A DNA stretch of 64,000 nt from Spirochaetia bacterium (GCA_963677925.2 CAXXYH010000003.1:1024001-1088000), one strand, 5' to 3'; positions 9,497 to 34,259 are shown, numbered from the stretch's first letter. The notes: generated by a model from the sequence alone, not told the origin. Program-made: numbers and translations.

Positions 9497-11554
9497 ATGA
9501 AAACCAGTGTAATCGGGAAACTTTTCAGCGGAATGAAGATCTCTACCAAGATCATCCTCAGCAATATATTCTTTCTTATTCCGATGGGAATTATGCTTTT
9601 TATCAGTCTTACCGGAATCAATTACGACATAAGATTCTCAAGCCTTGAGCTTTACGGAAATGAGTATCAGCAGCCGCTTGAGTCGCTGCTTCAGAATATT
9701 CAGGACCACAGAATATACTCATCCGACAGCGGTTTACAAAACAGGCTCTCAGATCTTGAAAGAAAAATAGACTCCGGATTCAATAAACTGGAAGAGGTTC
9801 AGGAAAAACGCGGCGAAGATCTTCAGTTTACCTCCGATGGACTTAGAATACGCAACAGGGAACAGCTTGTCCCTGCCCTTCTGAAAACCAGATGGAATGA
9901 TATAAAGCGATCAGGAAGCAGTGCAGATTATGAATCGCTTGTTTCAGATATACGAGAAATGATTACACATTCAGGTGATACTTCAAACCTTATCCTTGAC
10001 CCGGACCTCGACAGCTACTACCTGATGGATTTAACTCTTCTTGTTCTTCCTCAGACACAGGACAGACTTGGAGAAATACTTGCTTACGGATATGAGCTTC
10101 TGAAAGATATGGAGGCCGGCGGCATAAAAGCACTCCCTGCTTCTGACAAACTTAAATTTTACGTTTACGCAAGAATGCTTGAGGAATCCGACTACAGCAG
10201 GATACTCGGAAGCACAAATACGGCGCTTAACGAAGATCAGAACTTTTACGGTACCTATGAACCCATGCAGTCAACAATACCTTCAGCATTTGAAGCCTAC
10301 AAGGTTCCGACTCTTGAGTTTATAGGCATACTCTATGATCTCGGTACATCTGATGAGATCAATTATTCCTCATCAGAGTTTCTCGATTCCGGAGAGACAG
10401 CCCGGAATCAGAGCTTTGCCTACTGGGATGATACTGTACGGATTCTGAACGATCTTCTTGAAATCAGAATTGACAGTTACCGCAGCACTTTTATTAAATA
10501 TCTGATTGCAGCAATTGCAACCATACTCTGCGCATTCCTGATCTTCCTTGCAATCAGAAAAAACATTCTTTCTTCAATAAGTTCTCTTCAGGCGGGTTTC
10601 AGGCAGGCATCTGAAAACGACCTGACAACAAGAATAGATGTTTACGGAAGGGACGAGATAGCGCTTTGCTCTAATGACTTTAATGATCTTGTAACAAAAT
10701 TTTCAGATCTGATGAATAAACTCCAGAATATGACGGCTATACTTACCGAGTCGGTTCAGAACCTGAACGTCACTTCGCAGGAGGTTTTTGCTACATCAAA
10801 TGAACAGGCTGCCGCTGTCAAGGAAATAGTAACCACAATGGAAGATTCCGACAGCATGTCAAAGTCGGTAGCCACAAGTATTGCGGAGATTTCTGCACTT
10901 GCCTCGGGAACCAACGAATCGGTGAGAAGCGGCTTTGAACTTATCACGACCATCCTTGAGAAAATGAATGAGATTCAGCTCTCCAACGGCCAGACAATAA
11001 AAGGAATAAAATTCCTTTCGGAGAAAATTGAGAATATCTGGGAAATAGTTAACCTTATCAACGGAATCGCCGACCAGACAAAGATAATTGCCTTTAATGC
11101 CGAACTTGAAGCCTCATCTGCCGGAGAAGCCGGAAAGAGTTTTCAGCTTGTTGCTACCGAAATCAGAAGGCTTGCGGACAGTACGGTTTCATCGACTTCA
11201 GAGATAAAAAACAGGATAAACGAAATCCAGCGCTCCTCCGATGCACTTATTGTTTCTTCAGAAGACGGTACAAGAAAGATAGCAGAAGGCAATGATTTGA
11301 CAGGCCGTATGAACAGCGTATTTGAAGGGATACTTTCATCAACCGAAAAGACCTCTACTTCTACAGACTCCATCTCTATCTCAATTAACCAGCAGGTCTC
11401 ATCTTTCGAGCAGATACTGCTTACACTCAGGCAGATTTCAGAGGGAATAGACAACTTTGTTGTAGCAACAAAGGCAAGTGCCACATCTGCCGAAACTCTT
11501 AAGGGCATGGCACAGGAACTTGACAGCAGAATAGAAATGTATAATGTCAATTAA
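9497..11554 (+). CDS. Methyl-accepting chemotaxis protein (ACF-type tip) with helical periplasmic sensor
   Basis: 2 TM, HAMP, MA domain with IADQTKIIAFNAELEA; sensor motif SNLILDPDLDSYYL. Confidence 0.92.
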   Translation: MKTSVIGKLFSGMKISTKIILSNIFFLIPMGIMLFISLTGINYDIRFSSLELYGNEYQQPLESLLQNIQDHRIYSSDSGLQNRLSDLERKIDSGFNKLEEVQEKRGEDLQFTSDGLRIRNREQLVPALLKTRWNDIKRSGSSADYESLVSDIREMITHSGDTSNLILDPDLDSYYLMDLTLLVLPQTQDRLGEILAYGYELLKDMEAGGIKALPASDKLKFYVYARMLEESDYSRILGSTNTALNEDQNFYGTYEPMQSTIPSAFEAYKVPTLEFIGILYDLGTSDEINYSSSEFLDSGETARNQSFAYWDDTVRILNDLLEIRIDSYRSTFIKYLIAAIATILCAFLIFLAIRKNILSSISSLQAGFRQASENDLTTRIDVYGRDEIALCSNDFNDLVTKFSDLMNKLQNMTAILTESVQNLNVTSQEVFATSNEQAAAVKEIVTTMEDSDSMSKSVATSIAEISALASGTNESVRSGFELITTILEKMNEIQLSNGQTIKGIKFLSEKIENIWEIVNLINGIADQTKIIAFNAELEASSAGEAGKSFQLVATEIRRLADSTVSSTSEIKNRINEIQRSSDALIVSSEDGTRKIAEGNDLTGRMNSVFEGILSSTEKTSTSTDSISISINQQVSSFEQILLTLRQISEGIDNFVVATKASATSAETLKGMAQELDSRIEMYNVN

Positions 11555-11602: not shown

Positions 11603-13363
11603 TTATTTAAAATCAAGAGTTGCCGCTCCGTCCCAGTATTCGGGCGGAGATGCAATGTATTCTATGCATCGTTCCAGAAACTGTGACGTCGGAAAATCAT
11701 CCGGTAAGAGTTTCAATGCATTTTCCAGATAATCTTTTGCAGTATACCAGTTCCCTATCAGGTACATTTTTATTCCGTTTTCATAGAACCTGAACCACTC
11801 CTCTGAAAAGTTCTCAGGTTTGATCTCAAGAGAAAAGATTCTGGTCGGTTCAGTTTTACCCTTCACTCTGGCAATATCAACAAGTCTTGCAGTAAAATCA
11901 AGATGCAGACTGTTTTTTAAATTTTCTGAAACAAGTATGGGTGTACGGTAATGCTTTGTGAGACTTTCAAGTCTTGCGGCAAGATTAATTGTATCTCCGA
12001 TGGCGGTGAAATCGAATTTATCCGAACAGCCGATATTTCCGATGATAGCCGGCCCCTCGTTCAGGCCGACACCAATAGTAAACCCGCCCTCAGGAAGCTT
12101 CAGTCCGGAGAGATCGATCCGCTCATATTCACGAATCATTTCCATTGCCGCCTGGGCAGCTCTGTCGGCATTATCAATGTAGCTTACTGCAGCACCGAAA
12201 ATTGCGTAGATTGCATCACCAATGAATTTATCTACAGAACCGCCGTATTTTTTAATTATTGCCACCATGTTTGTGAAATGCTGATTCAGGAAATTAACTA
12301 CTGCATCCGGGGGATTATCAGCCATGATTTCATCAAAATGACGTATGTGGGAAAACATTGCTACAATCGTTCTCTTCTCACCGGTCATCAGATCCTTTTC
12401 TGTATCTTTAATCAGAAGATCATTGATTATCTCTTCGGGCAGGAATCTTGAAAATGCCGAGTAGATGGTTTTCGTCTCATTCTGCTTTCTTTCAAATTCC
12501 CGGGCAAGATAGATCATCTTCTTAATCTGATTTGAGATATTATCTGCTTCGAGGCCCTCAACCGGAACCTGCTCTCTCCGGATACAGCCCGCAACATAAT
12601 AACCGCTTAACCCAAGTTCCTCCGAATCAAGATCTATAAACAGTGTAACAAGTTTCTCAAGTTCAGGATCTCCAATACATCCGGCTTTAACTCCGGATCT
12701 GCATTTCTTCTTAAGTTCAATTTTTTGCTCATCATCAATTTCTTCATGAAACTTCAAAATCTCATATTCACTTTCCGACGAACCAACTGAGATATACGAA
12801 AACTCGGTATTGAGAATTAGAGCGATTCTTTCGAGGATATTTTCTATTACGAGTTCCATTCTTTCCGCGGTAACATCAAGACATCCAAGTTCGCTTTCGA
12901 AATACGCATCATACAGCCTGTCAAGGATCAGGCTTCTGGATGATGAGGCTGTAAAACCGGGTTTAAGCAGATCCTGCGGTTTTGGATGATTATCAGGATT
13001 CAAAAAAAATTCCGATTTACGGTGTTCATACATCAGCCTGCTTATCTTCATTCGGTTTTCCTGAGACATATTCTCGCTTCTTGGAACGACAAGGTCTACA
13101 GGTAAAATGGAAGATCGGTAATGCTCACCTATAAAGACCAAGGGTATCTGATTAATCAATTGAAGACTTTTAATTGAAAAAATAATCTCTTCGAGTTCTG
13201 TACTGAAACTGTCTCCCAGAAAAACAACATTCGGAGGAGAATTGTACATTTCATCAAGAAGTCTGTCCTTGGTACGGACTATTTCTATATCATACTCATC
13301 AAAATCAAGAAGTATAATCTTTGAAAGCAGCTCCGAGGCCTCTGCATAAAGTATCTCAGCCAT
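11603..13363 (-). CDS. Class III adenylate cyclase subunit (pseudo-REC, CHD, TPR); C2-like, lacks first metal Asp
   Basis: FSHIRHFD (D->H), DKFIGD, FTAIGDTINLAARLE, VKGK, C-terminal TPR and PP..WDG; start at MAEIL overlaps upstream stop. Confidence 0.88.
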   Translation of the reverse strand: MAEILYAEASELLSKIILLDFDEYDIEIVRTKDRLLDEMYNSPPNVVFLGDSFSTELEEIIFSIKSLQLINQIPLVFIGEHYRSSILPVDLVVPRSENMSQENRMKISRLMYEHRKSEFFLNPDNHPKPQDLLKPGFTASSSRSLILDRLYDAYFESELGCLDVTAERMELVIENILERIALILNTEFSYISVGSSESEYEILKFHEEIDDEQKIELKKKCRSGVKAGCIGDPELEKLVTLFIDLDSEELGLSGYYVAGCIRREQVPVEGLEADNISNQIKKMIYLAREFERKQNETKTIYSAFSRFLPEEIINDLLIKDTEKDLMTGEKRTIVAMFSHIRHFDEIMADNPPDAVVNFLNQHFTNMVAIIKKYGGSVDKFIGDAIYAIFGAAVSYIDNADRAAQAAMEMIREYERIDLSGLKLPEGGFTIGVGLNEGPAIIGNIGCSDKFDFTAIGDTINLAARLESLTKHYRTPILVSENLKNSLHLDFTARLVDIARVKGKTEPTRIFSLEIKPENFSEEWFRFYENGIKMYLIGNWYTAKDYLENALKLLPDDFPTSQFLERCIEYIASPPEYWDGAATLDFK

Positions 13364-14951
13364 ATACACCCCCGTAGGCATCTTTTCCGGGTGTATACAG
13401 ACCGTCAGGCCATTCATCATCGGTATTCCGGTTCAAAACAGTTTCCATGGATACTTCAGTACGTACATCTTCGAATACTGCTTTTGATACAAGAACCGGT
13501 TTCTGATACTGCTTTGTTATTCCCTCAAGCTCCTCGGCAATACCAACGACATCACCTATCACCGTAAAAGCGCTTTTATCCGGAGAACCAATATTTCCAA
13601 TAATTGCTTCTCCATGATGCAGACCGATCCCTATTCTGTAATGATTGCCGGACAGAACAAGACCGGAGCAGTCAACCTTCTCAATATTGTCTATCATTCC
13701 GATTGCAGCCTTTACCGCATTCTGATTGACCTGGCCGGAATCCCCGTTCAAACCGAAAACTGCAACTATGGCATCACCGATAAATTTATCGATGGTTCCT
13801 CCGTATTTTTTTATGATACCTACCATCATATCAAAATGCCGGTTCAGAAAATCAACAACCTGCTGAGCATTATTTTCTTCGGTTATTGTTGTAAATGATC
13901 TTATATCGGAAAACAGGATTGTCACATTCTTTTTCTGCACACTGTTTTTCTCTCTGTTTATTTCCTGGAAAATAAGGTCGGGAATTATCTCTGGAGGAAC
14001 AAATTTCGAAAAGATGTTGAAGATCTTACCCTGCCTGAGAATGTTCTGGCTTGTTTTAAGAGAAAGATAGAGGGGCGGTTCAATTCTGTTTACAAGTTCA
14101 CTGATAAGCTCCGGGTATATTCCTTCAAAATAATTATTACTCAGATGGCCGAAGTGTATTGTCCCCACAGCATTCCCATCCGGGCTTTTAAGTGGCAGAT
14201 AAAAATAAGAACTTAATTTTCTTGTCCCGATTTTCATCCTGCTGAATTCTTCCGAATCTTCGGTGAAGAATACTTCATGAGGATTTTCCATATCCAGCCC
14301 CTTGAAGTGTGCAAAAAAATCGTTCAGACAGAAATTAAGAAAATCCCTGTAATCTTCCCGGAATATCCCCTTGGAAGGCATGACATAGGATTCAACACTC
14401 TGGTTGTTGTTAATCAGTACAACGGATAAATGAATTTTTATTATCTGGTGAAGATACTGAAGAAGGTATTCAACTGTCTTTGATAAAACTTCAGTTTTCC
14501 CTGATACCGATGCAATATCACGCTTTACTGTCTGCTTTTGAAGATTATCAAGCAGGCGTCTGACGCTCTCCCCCTGTGAGAGACTCATTCTGATTGGAAA
14601 GTTCAAACCTGCTGCCCGGTTCCCGGTTTCAGAGTCGGGTATTTCAGACAATGTGTATACGGTTCCGGTTCCTCCGCAGGCGATAAACAGATTGCGCAGC
14701 CGGATATCATCCTTAGCCAGATAGCCGTAAACCGGAAGAGCCTCCGAATCAAGATGTTCCCTGAGAGCACAGATAATATCAAAACTCTCGGGCTGCAGCA
14801 GGTCAAGCAGTAGACAGTCAGGGACATCACGGATGTCTTTGAAACTGATGCTGTTTTTCCAGCTGATGAACCTCAGTTCAGGATTTTCAGGAGAAAGAAT
14901 TAGTTTTGAGAGTGATGCTGAAACGGCAATATCTTTCAATGATCTATCCAA
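13356..14951 (-). CDS. Class III adenylate cyclase subunit (degenerate REC, GAF-like, CHD); C1-like, lacks Asn/Arg
   Basis: FSDIRSFT, DKFIGD, FTVIGDVVGIAEELE (N->G, R->E), no KGK. Confidence 0.88.
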   Translation of the reverse strand: MDRSLKDIAVSASLSKLILSPENPELRFISWKNSISFKDIRDVPDCLLLDLLQPESFDIICALREHLDSEALPVYGYLAKDDIRLRNLFIACGGTGTVYTLSEIPDSETGNRAAGLNFPIRMSLSQGESVRRLLDNLQKQTVKRDIASVSGKTEVLSKTVEYLLQYLHQIIKIHLSVVLINNNQSVESYVMPSKGIFREDYRDFLNFCLNDFFAHFKGLDMENPHEVFFTEDSEEFSRMKIGTRKLSSYFYLPLKSPDGNAVGTIHFGHLSNNYFEGIYPELISELVNRIEPPLYLSLKTSQNILRQGKIFNIFSKFVPPEIIPDLIFQEINREKNSVQKKNVTILFSDIRSFTTITEENNAQQVVDFLNRHFDMMVGIIKKYGGTIDKFIGDAIVAVFGLNGDSGQVNQNAVKAAIGMIDNIEKVDCSGLVLSGNHYRIGIGLHHGEAIIGNIGSPDKSAFTVIGDVVGIAEELEGITKQYQKPVLVSKAVFEDVRTEVSMETVLNRNTDDEWPDGLYTPGKDAYGGVYG

Positions 14952-17124
14952 TCAGCTCCCGCACCCGTTCGAGCAGGCTGCCCCGGTCAAAATCATTTTT
15001 GTTTATGATTGCATTCCCGCCTGCGGCTTTGACTTTATCTTCGAGTTCGCTTCGCTCATTGGAGCTTATTACGATAACAGGGGTTTTTTTGTATTTCTCC
15101 TGCCTTCTGACATTCTCTATCAGCGTAATACCATCCATTCTGGGCATCTGAACATCGGTGATGATAAGATGAAAGTACTGCTCCTTCATTTTATCAAGAG
15201 CGTCAATACCGTCTACAGCAAGCGAGACATTGAAGTTCTCAAGCTCAAGAATTGATTTTTCTATTTCACGCGTTGATAAAGAGTCATCAACAACAAGAAT
15301 CTGCTTATACTGCTTGTCTTCCGGAGAATACCGTTCCTTGAACTCTATATTTCTTATGCCCTTGAACCTTGATATAAGTTCGGGAACAAACAGAATATTT
15401 ATAATCTCAAAGTTCTCATCAAAAACTATCCCTTGTATAACTTTCAGTTTCGACAGCCGTCCCGGGAGAGGTTTATATATTAACGATGAGAACTGAATTA
15501 CAGAATCAACTGTAATACCGATTATATCTCCGAGAGACTCGACAACAACTACAGAGAGTTTCTCGGATACGGATGTATTCTCTTTTCCAAGAAGGGCTGC
15601 AAGGGGATATACAGGAATTATCATCTCTCGAAGGCGTATGACATTCTTGTTGAGCACTGAAACTATTTCATCTCTTTTGATGATTAAAATTTCCTTCACG
15701 AAAGCAGTTGGAATAAGGAATTTTTTACCCTGAGCCTTAACAAAAAATCCGTCGACAGTAGCAAGGGAAAGAGGCAGTGACATTTCAAACAATGTCCCCT
15801 CACCGGTTTTACTGTCTATGATAATCTTTCCTTTAATTTTCTCAATATTTGTTTTTACAATATCAAGTCCTACCCCTCTGCCTGAAAGGTTGGTTATCTT
15901 CTTTGTGGTGGTAAACCCGGACTGAAAAAGAAAGGAGGAAAGACTTCCGTTATCCATCTTTCGAATCTCGTCCTCCATCTCAGGATTAAGCTCTATTGCC
16001 TTAGCCCGTATAGAATCATAATTTATACCTCGGCCGTCATCCCTTATTCTTATATTTATCCGTCCGCTCTCGGATGTACACTGAATAAGGATGCTTCCCT
16101 GGGAATCCTTGCCGGCTTCAGCCCTTTCCTGCGGACTTTCAATACCGTGATCAACCGCGTTACGGATAAGATGTATGATTGGATCATTAATGTTTTCAAG
16201 GATCGTTTTATCTATCAGCAAATTCGAACCAGTAATCTGAAAATCGATCTCCTTCTCAAGCAGCAGTGAAGTTTCTTCAACCATCTTTTTCAGCGGATTA
16301 AGAACCAGATTAAGAGGCAGCATCTGAAGTCCAAGAATTTCCTCCTGCAGCTCAAAACTGATATGCTCAAGCTGTGCCATTTCATCCGAATAGGTCTTCC
16401 TGATCTTCTGGGTCATCTTGGTCAGTTCCCCGAGTGAATCGGAAACAGGCTCAAGCCCGGGCTGATTGGCTGCAAAGTTTTTTACCTTCGCAAGAACACC
16501 CCGAAGACCTTCTTCAAGTTCGCTTAGAGTCTCATTTTCTCTCTTGAACTGGAACTGCTGTATAATCAGGCTGTTAAGCTGTTTTACTATTTCATCAATT
16601 TTTGTAATCTTAACCCTTATCGATTCATAATTCGACAGAGCTGAAGAGTCTTTCACTGAATCCGGAACAGGGCTGTCGTCAACACCATCCTTTCTGTTCT
16701 GGTTATGATCTCCTTCAAGCTCCTCCACTGTGAAAGCAAGGCCGGACTCCGCTTTTCTGAAGACATTCTGAAGGTTCGTCATTTCAATAGTGTCGGTACC
16801 AAGCGATTTAACCCGGTCCAGACCTTCCTCAAGATACCCGATGGAACTGTAGATCAGCTGAAGGAGATTCCGTGTAAGCGGATACCGCTTTTCCTTGACA
16901 CCCTTGAAAATGTTTTCAAGTTCATGGTTAATGGCTTCAAGATTCCTGAAATCCATCATCCGGGAAGAACCTTTGAGGGTGTGAAGCAGCCTGAGAAGTT
17001 CGGACAATTTCTCGTTGTTGTCCGGTTCCTTTCTCAGGGCAATGATGATATCACCCATGGTGACAATATTCTCTCTTGATTCCACTAAGAAGTTATCAAT
17101 AAATGATTTCTTGTCAATTGCCAT
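14944..17124 (-). CDS. cheA: Hybrid CheA-REC kinase (HPT, dimerisation, HATPase, CheW, REC; no P2)
   Basis: LHTLKGS, HLIRNAVDHGIE, DDGRG, SGRGVGLD, C-terminal VVDDS...ITDVQMP. Confidence 0.95.
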   Translation of the reverse strand: MAIDKKSFIDNFLVESRENIVTMGDIIIALRKEPDNNEKLSELLRLLHTLKGSSRMMDFRNLEAINHELENIFKGVKEKRYPLTRNLLQLIYSSIGYLEEGLDRVKSLGTDTIEMTNLQNVFRKAESGLAFTVEELEGDHNQNRKDGVDDSPVPDSVKDSSALSNYESIRVKITKIDEIVKQLNSLIIQQFQFKRENETLSELEEGLRGVLAKVKNFAANQPGLEPVSDSLGELTKMTQKIRKTYSDEMAQLEHISFELQEEILGLQMLPLNLVLNPLKKMVEETSLLLEKEIDFQITGSNLLIDKTILENINDPIIHLIRNAVDHGIESPQERAEAGKDSQGSILIQCTSESGRINIRIRDDGRGINYDSIRAKAIELNPEMEDEIRKMDNGSLSSFLFQSGFTTTKKITNLSGRGVGLDIVKTNIEKIKGKIIIDSKTGEGTLFEMSLPLSLATVDGFFVKAQGKKFLIPTAFVKEILIIKRDEIVSVLNKNVIRLREMIIPVYPLAALLGKENTSVSEKLSVVVVESLGDIIGITVDSVIQFSSLIYKPLPGRLSKLKVIQGIVFDENFEIINILFVPELISRFKGIRNIEFKERYSPEDKQYKQILVVDDSLSTREIEKSILELENFNVSLAVDGIDALDKMKEQYFHLIITDVQMPRMDGITLIENVRRQEKYKKTPVIVISSNERSELEDKVKAAGGNAIINKNDFDRGSLLERVRELIG

Positions 17125-18520
17125 ACCTGACTCCCTCTTTCAGATTATCTAATCTAGCCCTGCATATCTCCCTGAAATACTTGGCGTTAAACCCTTCAAG
17201 CAGGAACTGGTAATCTATTCTTTTATCACTTATATAACGATCGATATCCCTTGTCAGAATTCCAAGATGTATCTCTTCGCCCGCGGATGAGGTTCCGCAG
17301 CTGAAAGTAATGTAATATCTTGCCGGCCAGAATGCCGGATTGGCATCAAGCACTTTCTGAAAAGCAGAAAGTGCTGCAGATTTGTCCCCCTTCTGCAGAG
17401 GGATAAACCCGCCGAAAAAGCTGTAAAGACTCTGAGGATGTTCATTGGGTTTCAGCTGTGCAAACAGAACTTCGGCTTTTTTAAGGTTGTTTCTGCCAAG
17501 CTCGGAAAGAATATCAGCAAATTTTTCAGCCGATCTCAAGGCCGGGGAATCATCATCTGTAAAAATAGGGTTGTTAAGAATATTTGTGATAAACAGACAA
17601 ACCTGCTTTTCATCAGGAGGAGCCTGAAGCTCGGCTTTATGGATAACTTTTTTTACCGGCTCAGCAGATATGATATGACTGGGCACCGGCTGAATATTTG
17701 CCGGCTCCATATGAAGAGGATCTTTCTTCCTTAAAAAATAACAGTAGTCACTGGAAATAACTTCAAGCTGGGGATGTGATATGTGTGCAACCTCAGAAGC
17801 CGACAGAATCAGAATTCCTCTGTTTTTTAGCTTCTCGGTAATTTTGTTGATAACCTTCTGTTTATTTTCAAGATTCATATAGATCAGTGTATTCCTGAGA
17901 AAAACACAGTCCATCATGGGAAGATCGGCAAGGCTGTCATTATAAAGATTGATTTCCCGGATATCTATTTTATTCATGACATCTTCTTTAATAGATAGTT
18001 CTTCAGAGCCTTCAGATCGGGATGAAACCTCATCAAGCAGTTCATGAAAAAGCTTCCCGTCGGTTCGGAGTGCTCCCTTACGGAATATTCCTTTCCGGAA
18101 TTTATTCAAAATATGAGCGTTAATATCACTCGCATAAACCTTAAACGGCAGCCTGAGCTTTCCGTTCATCAGTGCATATAATGAAACAGGTTCTTCACCT
18201 GATGAACAGCTTGCACTCCAAATATTAATTGAGCCGCCTTCATTGTTCTTTTCAGGTATAAATACATCCCTGAGATATTTGAATTGTTTTTCTTCTCTGA
18301 AAAAATAGGTTTCATTTATAGTAACATGATCAAGTAAGCGTTCGTATTCTTCCTTTACTGTCTTAAGGATATTGAGATATACCTGTGCAGATCCGTTGAA
18401 ATCCTTTAACCGGTCATCAAGGTAGCCGTTGAAACTCATCATGTTTACAGGCTTCAGGTCAATCCCTGTGTGATATTCAATAAACCTTATTATTTCTGCG
18501 TATGAACTCATAGGCCGCAC
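17114..18520 (-). CDS. cheR: CheR methyltransferase with C-terminal TPR (WspC/FrzF-like)
   Basis: INETYFFRE, WSASCSSGEE, ASDIN, RNTLIY; TPR-like tail. Confidence 0.92.
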   Translation of the reverse strand: MRPMSSYAEIIRFIEYHTGIDLKPVNMMSFNGYLDDRLKDFNGSAQVYLNILKTVKEEYERLLDHVTINETYFFREEKQFKYLRDVFIPEKNNEGGSINIWSASCSSGEEPVSLYALMNGKLRLPFKVYASDINAHILNKFRKGIFRKGALRTDGKLFHELLDEVSSRSEGSEELSIKEDVMNKIDIREINLYNDSLADLPMMDCVFLRNTLIYMNLENKQKVINKITEKLKNRGILILSASEVAHISHPQLEVISSDYCYFLRKKDPLHMEPANIQPVPSHIISAEPVKKVIHKAELQAPPDEKQVCLFITNILNNPIFTDDDSPALRSAEKFADILSELGRNNLKKAEVLFAQLKPNEHPQSLYSFFGGFIPLQKGDKSAALSAFQKVLDANPAFWPARYYITFSCGTSSAGEEIHLGILTRDIDRYISDKRIDYQFLLEGFNAKYFREICRARLDNLKEGVRYGN

Positions 18521-19563
18521 ATTTCTTTTAATTCGGATGATATTTTCTGCAGCGGCAGAATTTTTGTTGCTGCATTAAGTTCCGCGGCGGCCTTGGGCAT
18601 TCCGTATATCAGCGATGTTTCACGGTCCTGAACAAGGGTTCGGCCTCCGGACTGTAAAATCTTAAGACAGCCGTCAGCTCCGTCCCGGCCCATTCCCGTA
18701 AGCAGAACACCTATTACGCCGCTGCCGTGACTGGCTGCCGCCGAGAAAAACATTTTGTCAACCGAAGGCTTCTGGTTCTGCAGTTTAGGAGAATCATCCC
18801 AGTATGCCTTCTGTTTCGTACAGCAGAGATGATAGGTTGACGGAGCCACAAGTACAGTACCAGGCTGAATTGTGTCATTTTCCTCTGAGATTCTGACGGT
18901 AAGCTCGGTGCCCTCATCCAGCCAGCGTGCGTAGCCCTCATCATAGCCCTCTTCTATATGCTGGCTCAGCAGTATGCCGACAGGGAAATTCCCCGGCAGT
19001 CCTTTTAAGACCTCACGTACAGCCGACGGTCCTCCGGTAGAGGCCCCTATTACAACGAGGGTGCAGGCCTTCCCTCCTGATAAACCTGGAGACGGTTTTA
19101 CGGACAAAGATGAAAAATCTCCTGCGGGGGGGGTAAGTTCCGTCTTCTCAATAATCATTTTTTTATTAAGTCTGAAACTTCCGAACCGTCCGGTATTTTC
19201 AAGAACTGTTTTGAAGGAAGCAGCAAACTCAGGGTCATTCATTTTACTTACTGCCGGCTTCGGAATAACTTCAAGTGCGCCCTTATTAAGGGCATTGAAT
19301 CCGACCTCGGAAATATCTTCACTTGTAAGAATCACTATCGGCAGAGGAGTGTTCTGCATAATTATCTCTGTGGCTGTAATGCCGTCCATAAGCGGCATAT
19401 TGACATCCATCAGAAGAAGGTCGGGCTTGAGTGATTTAACAAGCTCAATGGCCTGCTGACCGTTACTGCCTTCTCCTACTACTTCAAAACCGCCTAGTGA
19501 CTCAAGCAGCTGCTTTATAATTGAGCGTACCAGGTATGAATCATCAACCAATACTATTTTCAT
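18508..19563 (-). CDS. cheB: CheB response regulator methylesterase
   Basis: REC (VDD, LLMDVNMP, KP); GASTGG, QH, TGMGRDG. Confidence 0.95.
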   Translation of the reverse strand: MKIVLVDDSYLVRSIIKQLLESLGGFEVVGEGSNGQQAIELVKSLKPDLLLMDVNMPLMDGITATEIIMQNTPLPIVILTSEDISEVGFNALNKGALEVIPKPAVSKMNDPEFAASFKTVLENTGRFGSFRLNKKMIIEKTELTPPAGDFSSLSVKPSPGLSGGKACTLVVIGASTGGPSAVREVLKGLPGNFPVGILLSQHIEEGYDEGYARWLDEGTELTVRISEENDTIQPGTVLVAPSTYHLCCTKQKAYWDDSPKLQNQKPSVDKMFFSAAASHGSGVIGVLLTGMGRDGADGCLKILQSGGRTLVQDRETSLIYGMPKAAAELNAATKILPLQKISSELKEMCGL

Positions 19564-20098
19564 TGTTTTTTCCTGTAAGAATATTCCTGATATTTGTTTC
19601 AATATCTATGAAGAACTGGATACGTGATTCATTGCTGAAACGGCAGCCAAGCAGTCCGTTTCGAAGAAGAAGACCATCAAGTCCGGGGGGATTAACATAA
19701 AATTCGTTCAAAGACAGTGTCTTTATCTCGACCTGGCTTGAAACAATCAGACCGATACTGTCTATATGGACATCCTCATGCAGATCGGTAATCTTCATTA
19801 CCCGCTGAATTGTTTCATTGTTATAATCCGCTATATTCACTATGAGGCAGAGTTTGAGCCGTGAAGGATTTTTACATTTATAATTGTCCATCAGGAACTG
19901 ATCAAAATCACAGAGGACAAGATTTCTGCTGTTATAATCAGTGTATTTATCAAAATAGTCAGGACAGCCTGAATGAACTTCATAAAGTTCATTCAGGGAG
20001 GAGCTGCCTGTAAACTGGCTGCGATGGATTAGAAAATCAATTTCACGGTACTGCAGAACCAGAAAATCAGCACTGCTTCCATCGGAATTAATAGGCAC
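19544..20098 (-). CDS. Divergent CheW-like protein
   Basis: Position between cheW and cheB; beta-rich pattern (IGLIV..., FFIDI) like CheW; overlapping stop/start. Confidence 0.55.
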   Translation of the reverse strand: MPINSDGSSADFLVLQYREIDFLIHRSQFTGSSSLNELYEVHSGCPDYFDKYTDYNSRNLVLCDFDQFLMDNYKCKNPSRLKLCLIVNIADYNNETIQRVMKITDLHEDVHIDSIGLIVSSQVEIKTLSLNEFYVNPPGLDGLLLRNGLLGCRFSNESRIQFFIDIETNIRNILTGKNNENSIG

Positions 20099-20627
20099 TG
20101 ATATCGCCCTCCATCTTCTTTATCAGTGTGTTAAGATCAAATACAAAGATTTCTTCTGTATCAGTCGGGTTTATAGTGCCTATAAAATAGTCCTCATCCG
20201 GAATGGTGGATGTTATCCTGTGCAGTTCACTTTCCGGCAGATTTACAATCTCGACTACATCCGAAATAAGAATGGCAAGCTGATCATCCGCCCTGTTTAA
20301 AATCAGAAAGGTTGAAGAATCAAGCTTCTCTCCCTCCAGTATCACAGTCATGTCAATAACAGTATAGGGTTCACCATGCCGGTTAATAAAACCGCTGATA
20401 TACGGAGGTGTAAAGGGGACATAGAATACCGGCGTATTTCCGATTATCTCCTTTACTTCATCTGCAAACAATGCAAATTTTTTATCCTTGATTCCAATAA
20501 TCATATACTTGTTGTATTTCTGCGAGATTATAGCGGCTTTACCGTCTTTTTCGCTTCTAATCCGGCTTATCCTGTTCAGGATTTCCCTGGTCTCATTCGT
20601 CCGGCTGCTTTCTTCATTCTGCATCAT
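20088..20627 (-). CDS. cheW: CheW scaffold protein
   Basis: FALFADEVKEI, VPFTPPYISGFINRHGEPYTVID. Confidence 0.92.
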   Translation of the reverse strand: MMQNEESSRTNETREILNRISRIRSEKDGKAAIISQKYNKYMIIGIKDKKFALFADEVKEIIGNTPVFYVPFTPPYISGFINRHGEPYTVIDMTVILEGEKLDSSTFLILNRADDQLAILISDVVEIVNLPESELHRITSTIPDEDYFIGTINPTDTEEIFVFDLNTLIKKMEGDISAY

Positions 20628-20646
20628 TCACCTCCAGTCAGGGTTC

Positions 20647-21030
20647 TCAATAAAAATCTTCACTGAAAAGTCCGCGCCGTGCCTTCTTTTCACCATCACT
20701 GAACCCAATCTTGGCAATAAGAACCGCTACAGCCTTTTCAAGCTCGAGTGTTTTTCCAGTAAATTCCATTCCATAGTAATGATGTCCGGTCTTTCTATCC
20801 TGTTTATTCCATCTTGTTTCTACTGTTATCGGAGGCAGAGGCACACTTATAAATCCTTCAAAGGGTATCTTTATCTCTATCGTTCCCTTAAAGCCGGAAT
20901 CGATAGGCTGCTCAGCCAGAAGAAGGACTCCATTGGAACTGATGTCTGCCAGCTTACCGATCATATTCCCGGTTTCGGTATCCTCTATATCAAGATAGTA
21001 AACAAGATTTCTTCTTTTTATTTCGCGCAC
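20647..21030 (-). CDS. Stand-alone PilZ domain protein
   Basis: RxxxR (REIKR) and DxSxxG (DISSNG); likely GTG start after AAGGTG. Confidence 0.85.
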   Translation of the reverse strand: MREIKRRNLVYYLDIEDTETGNMIGKLADISSNGVLLLAEQPIDSGFKGTIEIKIPFEGFISVPLPPITVETRWNKQDRKTGHHYYGMEFTGKTLELEKAVAVLIAKIGFSDGEKKARRGLFSEDFY

Positions 21031-21056
21031 TGTATCACCTTTATCTGCATGCAATT

Positions 21057-23051
21057 TTATTCGATGTCACTTACATTATACTTATCAACCAGTTCCTTAA
21101 GTCCGTCGGCCATGGCTTTCAGATTTTCGGTTGATGCTGATGTTGACCTGGTGGAAACAACAAAATTATCTATACCGCCTGATATCTGCCTTAATGTCAG
21201 AAGAATCTGCTCAAACGCAGAAACCTGCTGATTGATAGATACGTTTATCTGCTGTGCCGATTCCGCTGATATTTCCGCAGAGCTTAAAACATCCTCGAAT
21301 ATTTTTCGGAGAGCACCTGAAAGCTCACCGCCTTCCCTGATATGTTCAGTTCCCTCTTCAGAAGCAATAATGAGGTTATCTGAAGAATGCTGAATTTCGT
21401 TAATCTTTCCCTTTATTTCACTTGTGGAAGACATCGTAATATCAGCAAGACGTCTGATTTCTGTTGCAACTATCTGAAAATTCTTTCCTGCTTCACCTGC
21501 GGCAGAAGCCTCCAGTTCCGCATTGAATGCAATAATTTTAGTCTGATCGGCAATCCCGTTAATTATATTTACAATCTCCCAGATGCTGTCTATCTTTTCG
21601 CTTAGTGCTTTTATTCCGTCGATAGTCTCCGAGTTTGATTTTTTAATTTCATCCATCTTTTCCAGGGTGCCCTGAACTGTTGAAAAGCCTGTCTGCACGA
21701 CCTCTCTTGTATTATCAGAAATTCTGGTCACCTCTTCGATCCTGTTTGCTATATTCTTTGACAGCTGATCAGAATCCTCCATGGTCGTAACTATTTCTTT
21801 TACTGCTGCAGCCTGCTCATTTGATGTTGCAGTAATCTGCTGGGATGATACCGAGAGATTCTGAACCGATTCAAAAAGCTCTGCAGAGGTAGATTTTATC
21901 CTTCTGAGCATATCCTCAACTGTATCAATCAAAGCGTTAAAATGAATTGATACTGTTCCTATTTCATCATGGCTTTTCTGCTCTACCCGTCCGGTCAAAT
22001 CGCCGGCGGCAATATTCTCAGTAAGTATTTTAATCTGTATCAGAGGCTTCAGGATACGTTTGAGAATAAGGGCAATAAGGTAATTGGCAAAAATAAAGGC
22101 GACAAAAAGAATAATTACACTGATAATTTTTATTTTATTCAGAAGACCGAACATATCGCTTGTATATGCCTTGGTAACAATGATTAGATCCAGGTCGGGA
22201 TAGGCTCTGAAAATTGCGATAGAATCTGAATCAATTTTATCACCAAGCATTCTGTAGGTTATCGAACCGTTCTGCTTCTTGATGATATCCCTTATAAAAT
22301 AGCTTCCATCTTCAGCCTGGTTATCATAAAGGCTTTCACCCTTAAGTGTTGGATGAATAAGAAGTTTGCCCTCATTATTCATGATATACGGATATCCGTT
22401 TTCACCTATTTTTATGCTCAGAATCCTTTTTTCAAGCTCGCCCAGATCAACCAGTTTATGGAATTCCGATTTATAAGATGAGGCCCAAATTATAAGATCC
22501 CAGGGTTTAAAATATGCCATACCGCCCGCTTTTGAGCGTGGTTTATCTTCATTCTTGTTCTGCCACTCATATTCCAGATACCCTTCCTTCATTGAAGTAG
22601 CTCTTTTCATAAAATCATAACCGCTTGCATCCGCCCCTTCCGAAAGAGGATGTATTACAAGAACACCCTTTCCGTCCACTCCGGCAAGATACCCGGTTTC
22701 ACCGATCTTTCCGATATCAGGATCAAGGATGATATTTTTTACATTCTGCCATGCCCGGGCTTCTGTCTGCCGTCCGGCTTTAAATTGATCATATTCATGT
22801 TCCACCAGCCGTTTTACCATTTCAGCTGTGCTGATAAGATAATTCTGAACGCTGGCATCCACATAGCTGTCGGTAAGCTGGTAAATCAATTCCGTTGTAT
22901 TTGAAAGCTCGTTCCGGTACTGCTTATCAAGACCGGATGTAAGATTTACAAAAATTCCAACCCCAAGCCCTGCCAGAACTATAACGAAAAGAACTCCGAA
23001 CACAGCCTGGATTTTTACACTGACACTTGAAAGTAATCTCCTAATATCCAT
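21057..23051 (-). CDS. Methyl-accepting chemotaxis protein with tandem Cache_2-type sensors (ACF-type tip)
   Basis: IGETGY..HP / IGENGYPY..HP Cache motifs; HAMP; IADQTKIIAFNAELEA. Confidence 0.93.
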   Translation of the reverse strand: MDIRRLLSSVSVKIQAVFGVLFVIVLAGLGVGIFVNLTSGLDKQYRNELSNTTELIYQLTDSYVDASVQNYLISTAEMVKRLVEHEYDQFKAGRQTEARAWQNVKNIILDPDIGKIGETGYLAGVDGKGVLVIHPLSEGADASGYDFMKRATSMKEGYLEYEWQNKNEDKPRSKAGGMAYFKPWDLIIWASSYKSEFHKLVDLGELEKRILSIKIGENGYPYIMNNEGKLLIHPTLKGESLYDNQAEDGSYFIRDIIKKQNGSITYRMLGDKIDSDSIAIFRAYPDLDLIIVTKAYTSDMFGLLNKIKIISVIILFVAFIFANYLIALILKRILKPLIQIKILTENIAAGDLTGRVEQKSHDEIGTVSIHFNALIDTVEDMLRRIKSTSAELFESVQNLSVSSQQITATSNEQAAAVKEIVTTMEDSDQLSKNIANRIEEVTRISDNTREVVQTGFSTVQGTLEKMDEIKKSNSETIDGIKALSEKIDSIWEIVNIINGIADQTKIIAFNAELEASAAGEAGKNFQIVATEIRRLADITMSSTSEIKGKINEIQHSSDNLIIASEEGTEHIREGGELSGALRKIFEDVLSSAEISAESAQQINVSINQQVSAFEQILLTLRQISGGIDNFVVSTRSTSASTENLKAMADGLKELVDKYNVSDIE

Positions 23052-23162: not shown

Positions 23163-23366
23163 ATGGAAGATAGAATAATATCTCTTGAAACTAAACTTGC
23201 TTTTGCAGAAGACAGCATTCAGGAATTGAACAAAACGGTACTTTCCCAGGAGAAGGATATACAGAAGCTTCGGGCTTTCTGTCTGGAGCTGCAGAAGAAA
23301 TTAAACGATCTGGCAGAATCTGATAACTCAGATTTCAGTGCTGATCAGAGACCGCCGCATTATTAA
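23163..23366 (+). CDS. slyX: SlyX family protein
   Basis: MEDRIISLETKLAF...ELN...C-terminal RPPHY. Confidence 0.9.
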   Translation: MEDRIISLETKLAFAEDSIQELNKTVLSQEKDIQKLRAFCLELQKKLNDLAESDNSDFSADQRPPHY

Positions 23367-23371
23367 TACTA

Positions 23372-23421
23372 AAAGACCTGCAGAAAATAGTTGAAATACT
23401 CCAATTATCACTGCAGGTCTT
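23372..23421. terminator. Inverted repeat / terminator between convergent genes
   Basis: AAGACCTGCAG...CTGCAGGTCTT. Confidence 0.65.
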
Positions 23422-24631: not shown

Positions 24632-24734
24632 ATTTTACCTTCTCCAGAAAGAATAATATCTCAAATTCCGCATAATTCATATACTAACTGATATTTCATT
24701 GCAATTGAGAACTGTTTCACTATATTATCCTTGT

Positions 24735-26243
24735 ATGAGGCTTAATTACTACCTTAGCATCATGATAATCATTGTTTCATCCCTGATGCTCTTTATTGGC
24801 ATCTGGTGTGCAAGAAAAAGAGAAGTAAAAGGTGCACGGACTTTTTCATTACTGATACTTGCAATGGTTATTCATTCCTTCGGTTATGCCTTTGAGCTTA
24901 TTGGCAGCAGTCTGAGCCGGATGTTTCTCTGTATCAGAATTGAGTATATAGGAGTTGCATTCTACCCCTATCTTCTGCTGCTGTTTACAAGCGAATACAC
25001 TGATGAAAGAAAGATAGCAAACAGGGTGGTCAGGGCAATAATTCTATCCCTCAATATCGCCACATTCTTTATTGTCCAGACAAACAGCGCACACCTTCTT
25101 TACTATCGATCAGTAACTGCCGGCAGTCCATATGGATTTCCGCTTCTTATTCTTGAACCCGGTCCATGGTATGCAGTACAAACGCTGCTGCTGTTTTCTA
25201 CCGCCCTGTACAGTGTAATTATATTCATCTACCGGATGAGGCGGCTCGACAGAAATGCACGTAAGCGCGCCGGGTTTCTTTTGATAGGAATTCTCATTCC
25301 CTGTATTGCAACAGTTCTCGCGATTACAGGTGTACTCCCAAGTCATATTGATTTTTCACCAATCAGCTATTTTCTGCTTGTTATTAATTATATAACCGGG
25401 CTGTTCAGGTACAGGCTGTTTCTGGTCAGTGAACTGTCGCACGAAATGATTCTTGATACTATCGAGGAAGCTGTCATAGTAATTTCGGATGACGGAATCG
25501 TGATAAATACAAATTCAGCTGTTACGGAGTATTTTCCGCCTCTTAACAATATATCAGTAGGTGATCGGCTGGCTGATTATCCGGAACTCTCAGGAATTCT
25601 TGAAAAAGAAAGGACTGATGAGATCAGCATTGGAGAAGACTTCTACCAGCTGAAAGTAATCCCCTATCAGAAACAGCATTGTACATTATACGTATTCAGC
25701 AATATTACACAGCGTACCGCAGCCAGGATCAAACTTGAAAAACTGGCGGTTACAGACCCGCTTACAGGGGTCTATAATAGAAGATACTTTATGACTGAAT
25801 GTGAAAAGGAAATAAAGGAAGCTCTGCGTTATCATTATCCTGTTTCAGCGATAATGCTTGATATTGATGATTTTAAAATTATTAATGACCAATACGGACA
25901 TAAATCAGGTGATGAGGCACTATGCCGGCTGACGGAAATATGCCTGAACCAACTGAGAGAAATTGATATTCTTGCCAGATACGGGGGTGAGGAATTTGTG
26001 ATTATGCTGCCTCATACTGAATGCCGTGAAGCCGTTGAAATAGCGGAAAGACTAAGGGAAGCCGTTGCAGGCGATAATGCCACGAATTTCACGATCAGTC
26101 TGGGAGTAAGCTGTCTCAGCGACAGTGAGATAAGTGATGTAGATCATCTTATAAACAACTCTGACACAGCCATGTATTTCTCAAAAAGAACCGGAAAAAA
26201 CAAAACCTCAGCCTTCAGCAATTTACCGCAATCTGCAGAATAA
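24735..26243 (+). CDS. Diguanylate cyclase (HisKA_7TM, PAS-like, GGDEF)
   Basis: 7 TM N-terminus; DPLTGVYNRR, DIDDFKIINDQYGH..GD, RxxD I-site (REID), RYGGEEF. Confidence 0.92.
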   Translation: MRLNYYLSIMIIIVSSLMLFIGIWCARKREVKGARTFSLLILAMVIHSFGYAFELIGSSLSRMFLCIRIEYIGVAFYPYLLLLFTSEYTDERKIANRVVRAIILSLNIATFFIVQTNSAHLLYYRSVTAGSPYGFPLLILEPGPWYAVQTLLLFSTALYSVIIFIYRMRRLDRNARKRAGFLLIGILIPCIATVLAITGVLPSHIDFSPISYFLLVINYITGLFRYRLFLVSELSHEMILDTIEEAVIVISDDGIVINTNSAVTEYFPPLNNISVGDRLADYPELSGILEKERTDEISIGEDFYQLKVIPYQKQHCTLYVFSNITQRTAARIKLEKLAVTDPLTGVYNRRYFMTECEKEIKEALRYHYPVSAIMLDIDDFKIINDQYGHKSGDEALCRLTEICLNQLREIDILARYGGEEFVIMLPHTECREAVEIAERLREAVAGDNATNFTISLGVSCLSDSEISDVDHLINNSDTAMYFSKRTGKNKTSAFSNLPQSAE

Positions 26244-28160: not shown

Positions 28161-29824
<1,664 letters not shown>

Positions 29825-30721
29825 TTATCCCTTTAATGCTTCCTTGCCGGAGACTATCTCTATCAGCTCATTGGTTATGGTTGCCTGTCTGGCATGGTTC
29901 TGCATTGTCACATACTTGTTAATAAGATCTTCCGAATTGTTTGTTGCATTTTCCATTGCAGTCATTCTTGATGAATGCTCGCTTAAAAGAGAATGCAGCA
30001 GATATGAATTGAGCCTGTATTTAAACATCAGATAACCCGCTGATACGGCCAGTTCATCACCGGAGGGTTCAATCTGTATCGGGCCTGCAGAGGCTTCTGA
30101 TTCTGCACCATCTGCACCATCTCCTGACTCAGACTTCTCCATAATTACCGGAAATACCTGTTTAAGCTCTGTCTCCTGCTGGAGAGCAGAATAGAAAATA
30201 TTACCTATAATATAGATCTTCTGAACATCACCTTTCATGAAACGTTCAAAAATATCCGACGCCATCTTATTGAGACGATCTTTTGTAAAGGTCTTCTCGG
30301 CTATCTCTGATTTTTGATAAACATCGTATTCTTTCCTGCGGCAGAAGGCAGTCCCCTTATTACCGATACTGGTCAACTCGACTTCGATGTCCTGCTCCTG
30401 CTTTTCACTGACAAATCTTTCTACGGCCTTTGTTACTGAACTGTTATGAGTTCCGCACAGGCCCTTATCTGCTGTAAACATTATTAAATGCACACGCTTT
30501 ACTTCCGGATATCCGCTAACAACAGGATGCACCAGCCCCTGCAGTGAAGCCATGAGTTCATTTGAGAATTCTCCTGCCTTTGCATGGAAGGTATTCAGGG
30601 CTGACTGAAGTCCATAGAGTTTCCGAAGCTTGATAGAGGAGATCATATTCATGGCCTTGGTGACCTTCTGCATATTCTGCAGCGAGCCGATTTTCCTTCC
30701 CAGGTCTCTTACATTACTCAT
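29825..30721 (-). CDS. atpG: ATP synthase F1 gamma
   Basis: KVTKAM, DKGLCG, EHSSRMTAM, RQATITNELIEIVSG. Confidence 0.98.
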   Translation of the reverse strand: MSNVRDLGRKIGSLQNMQKVTKAMNMISSIKLRKLYGLQSALNTFHAKAGEFSNELMASLQGLVHPVVSGYPEVKRVHLIMFTADKGLCGTHNSSVTKAVERFVSEKQEQDIEVELTSIGNKGTAFCRRKEYDVYQKSEIAEKTFTKDRLNKMASDIFERFMKGDVQKIYIIGNIFYSALQQETELKQVFPVIMEKSESGDGADGAESEASAGPIQIEPSGDELAVSAGYLMFKYRLNSYLLHSLLSEHSSRMTAMENATNNSEDLINKYVTMQNHARQATITNELIEIVSGKEALKG

Positions 30722-30731
30722 AATAAACCGT

Positions 30732-32915: not shown

Positions 32916-32926
32916 ATCTTTTCCTG

Positions 32927-33457
32927 CTATTTCAGTAATGTTTTCAAGGTTTTCAGACGCCCTTTCAGCGATATATCTATCCGCCTGTTCTGCCAGGTAA
33001 GCCTGAAGCCGCCGATGAGGCCCTTATTAATCCGGATTTCAGATCTGATTTTCTTTCCCGTTCTGGCACTCATCTTTTTCTCTATCTCTGATACAGTCTC
33101 TTCAGAGAGCTGATTCACGGTCTCAATTATCAGCGGGGTAAGGCCGTTCTCTATGTCTTCCTGAGACCTGAAAGCTTCAGGAAGAAAGGGAATTGCTGAC
33201 AGCCTTCCGTTTTCACAGATAGCATCCATCAGTCTTGATGTTGCTTCACTGACATACGGATTTATTGCCGTATTGATAAATTCCCTTTCGCTGTTTATGC
33301 TGTGACGATTCATACAGAACGATCTTATCTCCGGGACTTCCGAAACAAGTTTCGCGATAAACTCCATATCGGATTTTGCTACATCCAGTATCCCTTCTTC
33401 CGCGGATGACTCATACAGAGCACGGGCATAGCGCCTTACGACTTTAACTCCGCTCAT
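32927..33457 (-). CDS. atpH: ATP synthase F1 delta
   Basis: [14 protein letters not shown]...IDISL. Confidence 0.93.
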
Positions 33458-33936: not shown

Positions 33937-33942
33937 CGTTTA

Positions 33943-34173
33943 CTAGTTCATGAAGACAACAAGAAGCGCGATAATTGCACCGAAAAACGCAAGACCTTCG
34001 ATAAGCGCTGCAGCCAGAATCATATTTGATCTGAGATCCTTCTTCTCCTGCGGCTGCCTGGCGATAGCATCAAGTGCTTTTGATCCTACCAGACCAATTC
34101 CAATACTGCCTCCGGCTATACCAATACCGGCACCGAGAATAGCAATTGCGCGTGCTAACATTGTAAGATCCAT
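33943..34173 (-). CDS. atpE: ATP synthase Fo c (probably H+-coupled)
   Basis: GxGxG helix, ARQP loop, IEG carboxylate. Confidence 0.97.
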   Translation of the reverse strand: MDLTMLARAIAILGAGIGIAGGSIGIGLVGSKALDAIARQPQEKKDLRSNMILAAALIEGLAFFGAIIALLVVFMN

Positions 34174-34259
34174 ATTTACTCCTTAGATTTTACTATCAAA
34201 TTATTCAAAACCGCTGAAAATAAAATAACAGCAGTTATTTTCAAAAGAATTACCCCGGC

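Follow-up and report, generated by a model that had tools for sequence, protein, structure and literature searches.

A stretch of 64,000 nucleotides from a Spirochaetia bacterium (GCA_963677925.2, CAXXYH010000003.1:1024001-1088000; the whole stretch is hereafter called the window) contains nine minus-strand open reading frames (ORFs) that occupy positions 11603-23051 end to end and encode a chemosensory system followed by two class III cyclases, CycA and CycB. We propose, with a probability of roughly 0.6, that this operon encodes a non-motility module of the ACF (alternative cellular functions) type, Wsp-like in its working, with a dedicated adenylate cyclase as its output: CycA and CycB would form one heterodimer, coupled to the kinase CheA by protein contact. 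The observations on which this reading is built are the gene content, a conserved genomic linkage, residue patterns and folds. From the first gene to the last, the operon reads as follows:

21057..23051, minus strand: operon gene 1, methyl-accepting chemotaxis protein (MCP), 664 residues; dCache/Cache_3-Cache_2 sensor, HAMP and MCPsignal (Pfam)
20647..21054, minus strand: PilZ protein, 135 residues; Pfam PilZ at E=8e-5, 23.3 bits against a cut-off of 22.5
20088..20627, minus strand: CheW coupling protein, 179 residues; Pfam CheW, 57 bits
19544..20098, minus strand: CheW', a divergent second CheW-fold protein by its predicted fold, 184 residues
18508..19602, minus strand: CheB, N-terminal receiver and methylesterase; Pfam CheB_methylest 187 bits, Response_reg 83 bits; NCBIfam PRK12555 319 bits
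17114..18520, minus strand: CheR methyltransferase (Pfam CheR, 122 bits) with a C-terminal extension of ~200 residues resembling tetratricopeptide repeats (TPR)
14944..17124, minus strand: CheA, 726 residues; Hpt-HATPase-CheW(P5)-Response_reg (Pfam)
13356..14951, minus strand: CycA, class III cyclase, 531 residues; Pfam Guanylate_cyc, 75.5 bits against a cut-off of 21.9
11603..13420, minus strand: CycB, class III cyclase, 605-residue ORF; Pfam Guanylate_cyc, 77.7 bits against a cut-off of 21.9

Read from MCP to CycB, the gene junctions measure 2, 19, -11, -59, -13, -11, -8 and -8 nt, so that the genes either abut closely or overlap; both CheA/CycA and CycA/CycB show an 8-nt overlap of stop and start codons. 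An earlier note on this DNA, made from the sequence alone, had read the run as MCP-PilZ-CheW-CheW'-CheB-CheR(TPR)-CheA-cyclase-cyclase, with a receiver but no P2 domain in CheA and without free CheY, CheX or CheD. Pfam, fold and profile work confirmed this gene order; CheA indeed ends in a Response_reg domain and has no P2 or CheY-binding match in Pfam, and a Pfam scan of the nine genes and their flanks recovered no CheY, CheX, CheD, CheC, CheZ or CheV domain. The only receivers that Pfam recognises in the run are those of CheB and CheA, and the two terminal genes carry no GGDEF domain in Pfam but a PF00211 cyclase domain each.

In the head-to-tail dimers of class III cyclases, as in the C1/C2 structures, one chain contributes the Asp pair to each active site and its partner contributes the remaining four catalytic residues. 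CycA reads D-K-D-T-G-E at the six positions: it keeps both metal-binding Asp, the Lys and the Thr, with Gly in place of the transition-state Asn and Glu in place of the Arg (GDVVGIAEELE vs GDAVNVAARLE / GDxVNxAxRLE in active enzymes, PDB alignment). CycB reads H-K-D-T-N-R: His stands for the first metal-binding Asp (FSHIRHF vs FSDIVSF / FSDIxxF in active enzymes, PDB alignment), and the Lys, Thr, Asn, Arg and the VKGK strand are retained. The full set thus exists only across the two chains, and neither protein is complete alone; an A:B dimer would have exactly one complete site, A:A and B:B dimers none. Since each lacks catalytic residues kept by the other, CycA is probably the C1-like half and CycB the C2-like half of one obligate heterodimer with one active site. 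The earlier note had placed a REC-like/cyclase pair at the WspR position; with Asn and Arg missing in CycA and the first metal-binding Asp missing in CycB, we see two predicted halves of one enzyme and not two receiver-cyclase outputs. The note had not remarked on these complementary defects, nor on the convergent second chemoreceptor, the slyX gene and the later CycB start described below. The two cyclases as independent homodimeric outputs were considered and rejected on the ground that each is without essential residues.

When 401 sampled genomes of the class were searched with residues 1-313 of CycA (E<=1e-10), 31 matched, with one match each, and the surroundings were examined in 30 of them, the match in G031 lying on a contig of only 2.3 kb. 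A CheA homologue is found directly upstream of the cyclase in 30/30 examined genomes, across many families, and MCP, CheW, CheW', CheB and CheR are also present in these loci where contigs allow. The synteny survey that had been suggested as a check therefore came out positive, the cyclase coming directly after a CheA-receiver in every examined genome, and the idea that the cyclase takes the position of WspR gains from the same linkage, 20 of the 30 having a single receiver-GAF-cyclase gene at that place.

This single-gene form encodes a protein of ~615 residues (receiver, GAF, cyclase and TPR tail) in which D-K-D-T-N-R is complete in all 20 genomes and the receiver is canonical (DD-D-T-K) in 17 and degenerate in three. 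It has the same cluster and position as CycA and CycB, 33-54% identity to both, the Lys/Thr residues and the ...LDFK tail of CycB, but its six catalytic residues are complete and its receiver is in most cases canonical, whereas the window has complementary halves with degenerate receivers. The pair form occurs in ten genomes (G000, G008, G155, G273, G249, G257, G336, G342, G360 and G169; in G008 the pair is spread over two contigs). In all ten pairs the A copy has lost the Asn (to G, A, S, T or E) and the Arg (to E or L), and in the B copy His replaces the first Asp; these substitutions hold at 37-76% identity. The absence of essential residues from each protein alone, together with the truncated domain of CycA (see below), could also be read as the mark of a catalytically dead pair, pseudo-enzymes serving as scaffolds or as nucleotide-binding regulators of the array. 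We regard this as very improbable: the losses are exactly complementary in 10/10 pairs, the residues of the composite site are all kept, and random decay would not keep a complementary pattern over such a range of identity.

A maximum-likelihood tree of 40 cyclase domains, from which a motif filter excluded L115-B, L116-A and -B, L117-B, L026, L027 and L101, groups the A copies in one branch (99/98) and the B copies in another (94/93), among the single forms. Because A and B each form one branch, the tree fits a single duplication followed by a division of the active site between the copies. The CheA sequences add a second evolutionary aspect. The CheA of the window is 82% identical to that of G008 and 67% to that of G155, pair-form genomes of another family have CheAs 60-67% identical to it, and the CheA of G001, a genome of the same genus that carries the single-gene form (locus L014), is only ~51% identical; synteny of the flanks between the window and G001 was looked for and not found. 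The pair-type cluster, judged by these identities, does not follow the species grouping, and the lower identity within the genus than to another family suggests that the cluster was exchanged between lineages.

Beyond the sampled genomes, A-type proteins appear in a large protein database as a family of ~515-545 residues that carries ...AEELE and lacks a Pfam receiver; one member is annotated in Spirochaeta isovalerica. The linkage is also seen on named contigs from Sediminispirochaeta, Treponema and metagenome-assembled genomes (MAGs) of Spirochaetales; two named contigs duplicate loci already counted and were counted once. Three Treponema loci have a single complete cyclase with Asn at the acceptor position of its receiver, and a Nitrospinota MAG encodes a receiver-GAF-PAS-cyclase after a CheA-receiver. 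In a scan of genome contigs with CycA alone, none of 92 pattern matches was confirmed; the contig scan with an alignment returned mostly generic cyclases, with CheA, CheR or CheW adjacent in 8 of 80 loci, six of which gave a long CheA match.

The product of the CycA/CycB pair is predicted to be cyclic AMP (cAMP), because Lys and Thr, which we take to specify ATP in subclass IIIb, stand at the specificity positions in CycB and in all 20 single-gene forms. The cAMP output proposed earlier thus stands as a prediction from these residues, with the difference that the pair would act as one heterodimer. Class III also includes guanylate cyclases and sequence cannot prove specificity, so that cyclic GMP (cGMP) or another cyclic nucleotide may be thought of as the product; there is very little to recommend this, given that Lys/Thr is the adenylate-type pattern and not Glu/Cys, and that the best PDB relatives of CycA and CycB are adenylate cyclases. 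A cGMP product had been considered and was rejected on the same two residues. The genome has 16 matches to cyclic-nucleotide-binding domains, so readers of cAMP exist in it.

A structure model of the complex between the catalytic regions of CycA and CycB reached an ipSAE of 0.61 against 0.00 for the best control, a mark reached by 116 of 157 solved complexes and by 2 of 215 mismatched pairs. The partners have a pLDDT (predicted local distance difference test) of at least 80, at least 95% of contacts are shared between runs, and the interface includes the catalytic segments KFIGD and IGD..N.

How CheA would reach the cyclases depends on their N-termini. CycA consists of a degenerate receiver, a GAF domain, a long helix and the class III cyclase domain, which is without its last ~30 residues (Pfam positions 5-152 of 183) and is followed by no TPR tail; CycB has a degenerate receiver, a reduced middle domain, the class III cyclase domain and a TPR-like tail ending in ...LDFK, and its start, from the alignment to orthologues, is more likely Met20 at 13363, which gives 586 residues. 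The PF00072 receiver family has no Pfam match in either protein, and yet both align along their length with orthologues in which Pfam finds a receiver at 73 bits. A model of CycA 1-313 shows a receiver-like alpha/beta domain (pLDDT 55-80), a GAF domain (pLDDT 75-90) and a long helix leading to the catalytic domain, and its best Foldseek matches are the receiver-GAF sensor kinase 6oaq (E=1e-6), WspR (3bre, E=6e-5), GAF domains and receivers. The five receiver positions are occupied by gap/gap-D-L-T in CycA and by E-A-G-G-R in CycB, and CycA alone of the two keeps the Asp at the acceptor position. By these residues, both N-termini are best described as pseudo-receivers without the acidic pair, the Thr or the Lys. 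Their earlier description as receiver-like holds for the fold in the CycA model and fails for the phosphorylation pocket, which is lost. One can thus not take WspR-type activation for granted, and any account of the coupling step is conjectural.

CheA itself appears competent. Its Hpt domain keeps the histidine (HTLKG), the kinase boxes are present and its C-terminal receiver is canonical (DD, D, S, K), as it is in all 31 aligned CheA C-termini of a motif-filtered set; three to four further CheA paralogues, 31-35% identical, are encoded in the genome. Because these residues are kept, CheA in this genome should be able to pass phosphate to CheB and to its own receiver; the cyclases are probably not among its targets. 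A canonical WspR-like phosphorelay, in which CheA phosphorylates the acceptor Asp retained in CycA and the atypical receiver is still functional, would draw on this intact kinase, on an Asp at the acceptor position in 8 of 9 tabulated A-type proteins and on an ancestral single-gene form with a canonical receiver. We find it unlikely: the A type does not conserve the Thr, the Lys or the acidic pair that binds Mg, and its L118 member has Val at the acceptor; the B type has Gly or Asn there and Pfam sees no receiver; and in some relatives the linkage persists although the CheA His and the cyclase Asp are both gone. Phosphotransfer from CheA to the cyclases, for which the earlier note had proposed a test, is for the same pocket residues doubtful in this genome.

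The lack of a phosphorylatable receiver may also be taken to mean that cyclases and Che proteins are merely neighbours, with control of the cyclases left to their GAF domain or to other signals, and Che signalling directed through, for example, the CheA receiver or a distant response regulator. The GAF domain is well conserved in A-type and single-gene forms, and the genome has many orphan receivers, which both suit such an arrangement. This explanation too is improbable in our view: a cyclase follows CheA in all 30 examined genomes from many families, the stop and start codons overlap, the cluster has no other output gene, and the pseudo-receiver keeps its length in each of the ten pairs.

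We thus favour a contact-coupled CycA:CycB output, which may be pictured as follows. An array of two chemoreceptors (one with a dCache sensor, one whose sensor has no Pfam match), CheW, CheW' and the CheA-receiver protein would be adapted through methylation by CheR-TPR and CheB, with the PilZ protein and its intact cyclic di-GMP (c-di-GMP) motifs as an accessory. The ancestral output would have been a single receiver-GAF-cyclase-TPR regulator, presumably phosphorylated by CheA and active as a homodimer, as kept in most relatives. In the lineage of the window, the output gene would have been duplicated once and the copies would have split the active site, CycA giving the two metal-binding Asp and CycB the Lys, Thr, Asn and Arg, so that a complete site would exist in the head-to-tail CycA:CycB heterodimer alone, its second site being dead, as happens in mammalian C1/C2; the pair would make cAMP, as its Lys/Thr residues of class IIIb predict. 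The signal of CheA may be relayed to the cyclases through protein contact, in which the pseudo-receivers might, for instance, bind the CheA P1 domain or its phosphorylated C-terminal receiver; as both cyclase receivers have lost the phospho-acceptor pocket, we consider contact, with low confidence, the likeliest route in this genome. Heterodimer activity, the nature of the product, control by CheA in any form and the part played by PilZ are inferred from the observations. It is tempting to go one step further and to speculate that the array has abandoned a phosphotransfer output, that ligand and PilZ-read c-di-GMP are passed on to the heterodimer by contact with CheA, and that the dead site serves as a regulatory pocket like the forskolin site; this bolder scheme is possible, though rather doubtful. 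If it is true, the module converts chemoreceptor and c-di-GMP input into cAMP.

Several points weigh against the contact-coupled heterodimer as a dedicated output: (i), the complex model does not discriminate the heterodimer from homodimers, and its pass may reflect likeness to solved cyclase dimers; (ii), the catalytic domain of CycA is C-terminally truncated (Pfam 5-152 of 183), and the genome has 10 cyclase domains, which makes other pairings conceivable; (iii), no Pfam receiver is found and the acidic pair, Thr and Lys are missing in both cyclases; (iv), the Hpt motif of CheA is without its His in four distant loci, L117, L118, L024 and L025, in a tally that sets L119 aside. In L118, L024 and L025 the adjacent cyclase is also without the acceptor Asp, while the A copy of L117 keeps it (the B copy of L117 is not in the receiver-residue table), and all four loci still hold cheB and cheR. 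Linkage that persists without phosphotransfer points either to coupling by contact or to systems in decay, and these His-less systems may be decaying instead of rewired; (v), a receiver on CheA and a missing P2 are common outside the ACF class (PMC10782961).

Further features bear on the class. MCP, CheW and CheA stand in one cluster free of motility-type output or auxiliary genes, which is the ACF-type core. Table S2 of PMC10782961 has 115 Spirochaetia rows; among the 60 covered here, eight CheAs have the present architecture, all labelled ACF, and the other 52 are labelled F2 and have no receiver. The CheR-TPR fusion is reported in PMC3447774 to be predominantly ACF-associated. By gene content and domain architecture, we regard the system as probably ACF-type; it appears Wsp-like in its working and not a member of Wsp, since its terminal genes carry PF00211 and no GGDEF. 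The Wsp/Frz-like gene content described in the earlier note (MCP, two CheW-type proteins, CheB, CheR-TPR, CheA-receiver) is thus all present, and of its wiring scheme the genomic linkage and the WspR-like position stand; two separate receiver-cyclase outputs are not supported, and phosphotransfer to the cyclases is doubtful.

Wsp of Pseudomonas aeruginosa comprises WspA-F and WspR: a membrane MCP, two CheW-type proteins, CheR-TPR, CheB, a CheA-receiver protein and, last, a receiver-GGDEF protein. The window has the same membrane MCP, pair of CheW-type proteins, CheR-TPR, CheB and CheA-receiver, no CheY, and a second-messenger enzyme at the end. It differs from Wsp in that its output is a class III adenylate cyclase and not a GGDEF enzyme, that this output is split into two genes with pseudo-receivers, that a PilZ gene lies in the operon and that a GAF domain separates receiver and catalytic domain. 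By analogy, the single receiver-GAF-cyclase gene of the relatives would be the exact counterpart of WspR, with a cyclase replacing GGDEF. Frz of Myxococcus xanthus, with the CheA-receiver FrzE, the CheR-TPR FrzF, FrzA and the divergent FrzB, controls reversals via receiver proteins; it shares the CheA-receiver fusion, CheR-TPR and the combination of one orthodox and one strongly divergent CheW, but has a cytoplasmic receptor, no cyclase and a role in motility reversals. Pil-Chp of P. aeruginosa, a type IV pilus system, raises cAMP via the class III cyclase CyaB (3r5g, among the PDB relatives of CycA and CycB), which is encoded elsewhere and controlled indirectly, whereas the cyclase of the window is the terminal gene pair of the operon itself.

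The likeness of the predicted pair to mammalian adenylate cyclase C1/C2 and to the alpha/beta subunits of soluble guanylate cyclase lies in the Asp pair being on one chain and the Lys, specificity residue, Asn and Arg on the other, with one active and one degenerate site per dimer; PDB entries 1azs and 1cjk are among the sequence matches of CycA and CycB. The window, in contrast, has two bacterial class IIIb genes with receiver-like/GAF N-termini, which would have arisen independently by duplication in a spirochaete family. Bacterial class III cyclases homodimerise, according to a 2022 review (PMC9552081), and our literature search turned up no bacterial two-gene heterodimeric cyclase; the passages searched in PMC9239204 and PMC2447327 contain nothing on Che-to-cyclase wiring or bacterial heterodimers. 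Among the cheR-TPR clusters of a 2012 survey (PMC3447774), a 'REC - CHD' regulator appears once (supplementary file 3, row 107). In the literature searched, the wiring is catalogued only, and experimental work on an operon that links Che proteins to a cyclase was not found. What is new is the combination, a predicted pseudo-receiver heterodimeric cyclase as array output, together with a series from the orthodox to the derived form within the family.

What is known of non-motility chemosensory pathways comes largely from Wsp (c-di-GMP), Frz, Che3 and Pil-Chp. Here, as in a natural experiment, one bacterial class holds canonical receivers on complete cyclases, half-cyclases with pseudo-receivers, and CheAs without the phospho-histidine. 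Comparing these forms could show how a receptor array drives an enzyme without phosphotransfer and how an asymmetric cyclase of the C1/C2 type, usually presented as eukaryotic, develops out of a homodimer through a single duplication; the PilZ gene inside the operon further provides a testable link between c-di-GMP and cAMP.

Among the upstream components of the array, CheW has orthologues in every complete relative cluster, and CheW' was the hardest to assign. Its ORF has no Pfam, NCBIfam or PDB sequence match, and an hhalign profile comparison with the neighbouring CheW family gave a probability of only 16.5%. Its AlphaFold model (pLDDT 83), by contrast to these sequence comparisons, retrieved CheW or CheA-P5 structures as all 16 best listed Foldseek matches (ranks 1-17), the best being 6s1k_C (E=6e-8), and an ORF of similar size lies at this position in nine relatives that were aligned. 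The model thus identifies the product of 19544..20098 as a divergent CheW-fold protein, and the label cheW' given to it earlier is borne out by fold and not by sequence. The TPR assignment of the CheR tail, likewise made earlier, is supported in a comparable way: Pfam TPR matches are sub-threshold for the window protein and for 8 of 11 orthologues, and a profile of 12 orthologous C-terminal tails matches TPR proteins of the PDB (YrrB 3e-7, Cdc27 2e-6, consensus TPR 6e-14). The longest CheB ORF starts at TTG 19602, and Met14 at 19563 is the likelier start.

On the input side, the arms of the operon MCP comprise ~140 and ~144 residues around the hairpin tip (arm arithmetic), which would fit the 40-heptad length; full-length orthologues of 45-78% identity head the cluster or are convergent to it in relatives. 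Two further genes and a promoter-like site adjoin the operon:

9497..11554, plus strand: second chemoreceptor, 685 residues, convergent to the operon; Pfam HAMP and MCPsignal
23163-23366, plus strand: SlyX-family gene, 67 residues, divergent to the che operon; Pfam 78.6 bits
23104..23132, minus strand: promoter-like hexamer pair, weak (9/12 matches in a consensus scan), in the 111-nt gap between MCP and slyX

The sensor region of the second chemoreceptor (residues 1-368) has no Pfam family. Its signalling domain is near-identical to that of the operon MCP, with a shared hairpin tip sequence, and a full-length orthologue of 70% identity lies beside the cluster in G155; it probably provides the array with a second input. 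Another chemoreceptor gene, with a dCache_1 domain, is located at 57175-59034 (minus strand), adjoining a sugar ABC transporter operon.

In the PilZ protein both motifs are intact (RxxxR as REIKR, DxSxxG as DISSNG) and are kept across 15 aligned orthologues, which also share a family-specific C-terminal IGFSDG. A homologue is present in 14 of 28 fetched relative loci, many of which end at contig edges, and its position varies. From these motifs, the protein is probably a c-di-GMP-sensing accessory of the array. A diguanylate cyclase gene with a seven-transmembrane receptor (HisKA_7TM + GGDEF) lies at 24699-26243 on the plus strand, ~1.6 kb upstream of the PilZ-containing operon, and is a possible local source of c-di-GMP; GGDEF genes flank the cluster also in loci L118 and L121.

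The 408-nt gap upstream of the MCP gene contains the divergent slyX, which leaves 111 nt for a promoter. Consensus scans found 37 promoter candidates against 28.2 in shuffled sequences (sd 5.8) and 14 terminator candidates against 11.6 (sd 3.9), neither being clearly above the shuffles. At ~23365-23420, downstream of a LysM gene, a 10-bp inverted repeat followed by a T run was seen by eye. No Rfam family reached its gathering score across the whole window.

Two other features of the window are recorded here. The otherwise ordinary atp operon (28409-35111) contains an unusual fusion, an F-type ATP synthase alpha subunit of 727 residues (30732-32915, minus strand) that ends in an EIIA-2 domain of the phosphotransferase system (PTS; PF00359, 76 bits, residues 588-719). 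At 42466-43893, also on the minus strand, an ORF of the MtmB (monomethylamine methyltransferase-like) family, 475 residues long with zero internal stops, adjoins transporter genes of the energy-coupling factor (ECF)/cobalt type and an aldehyde ferredoxin oxidoreductase gene.

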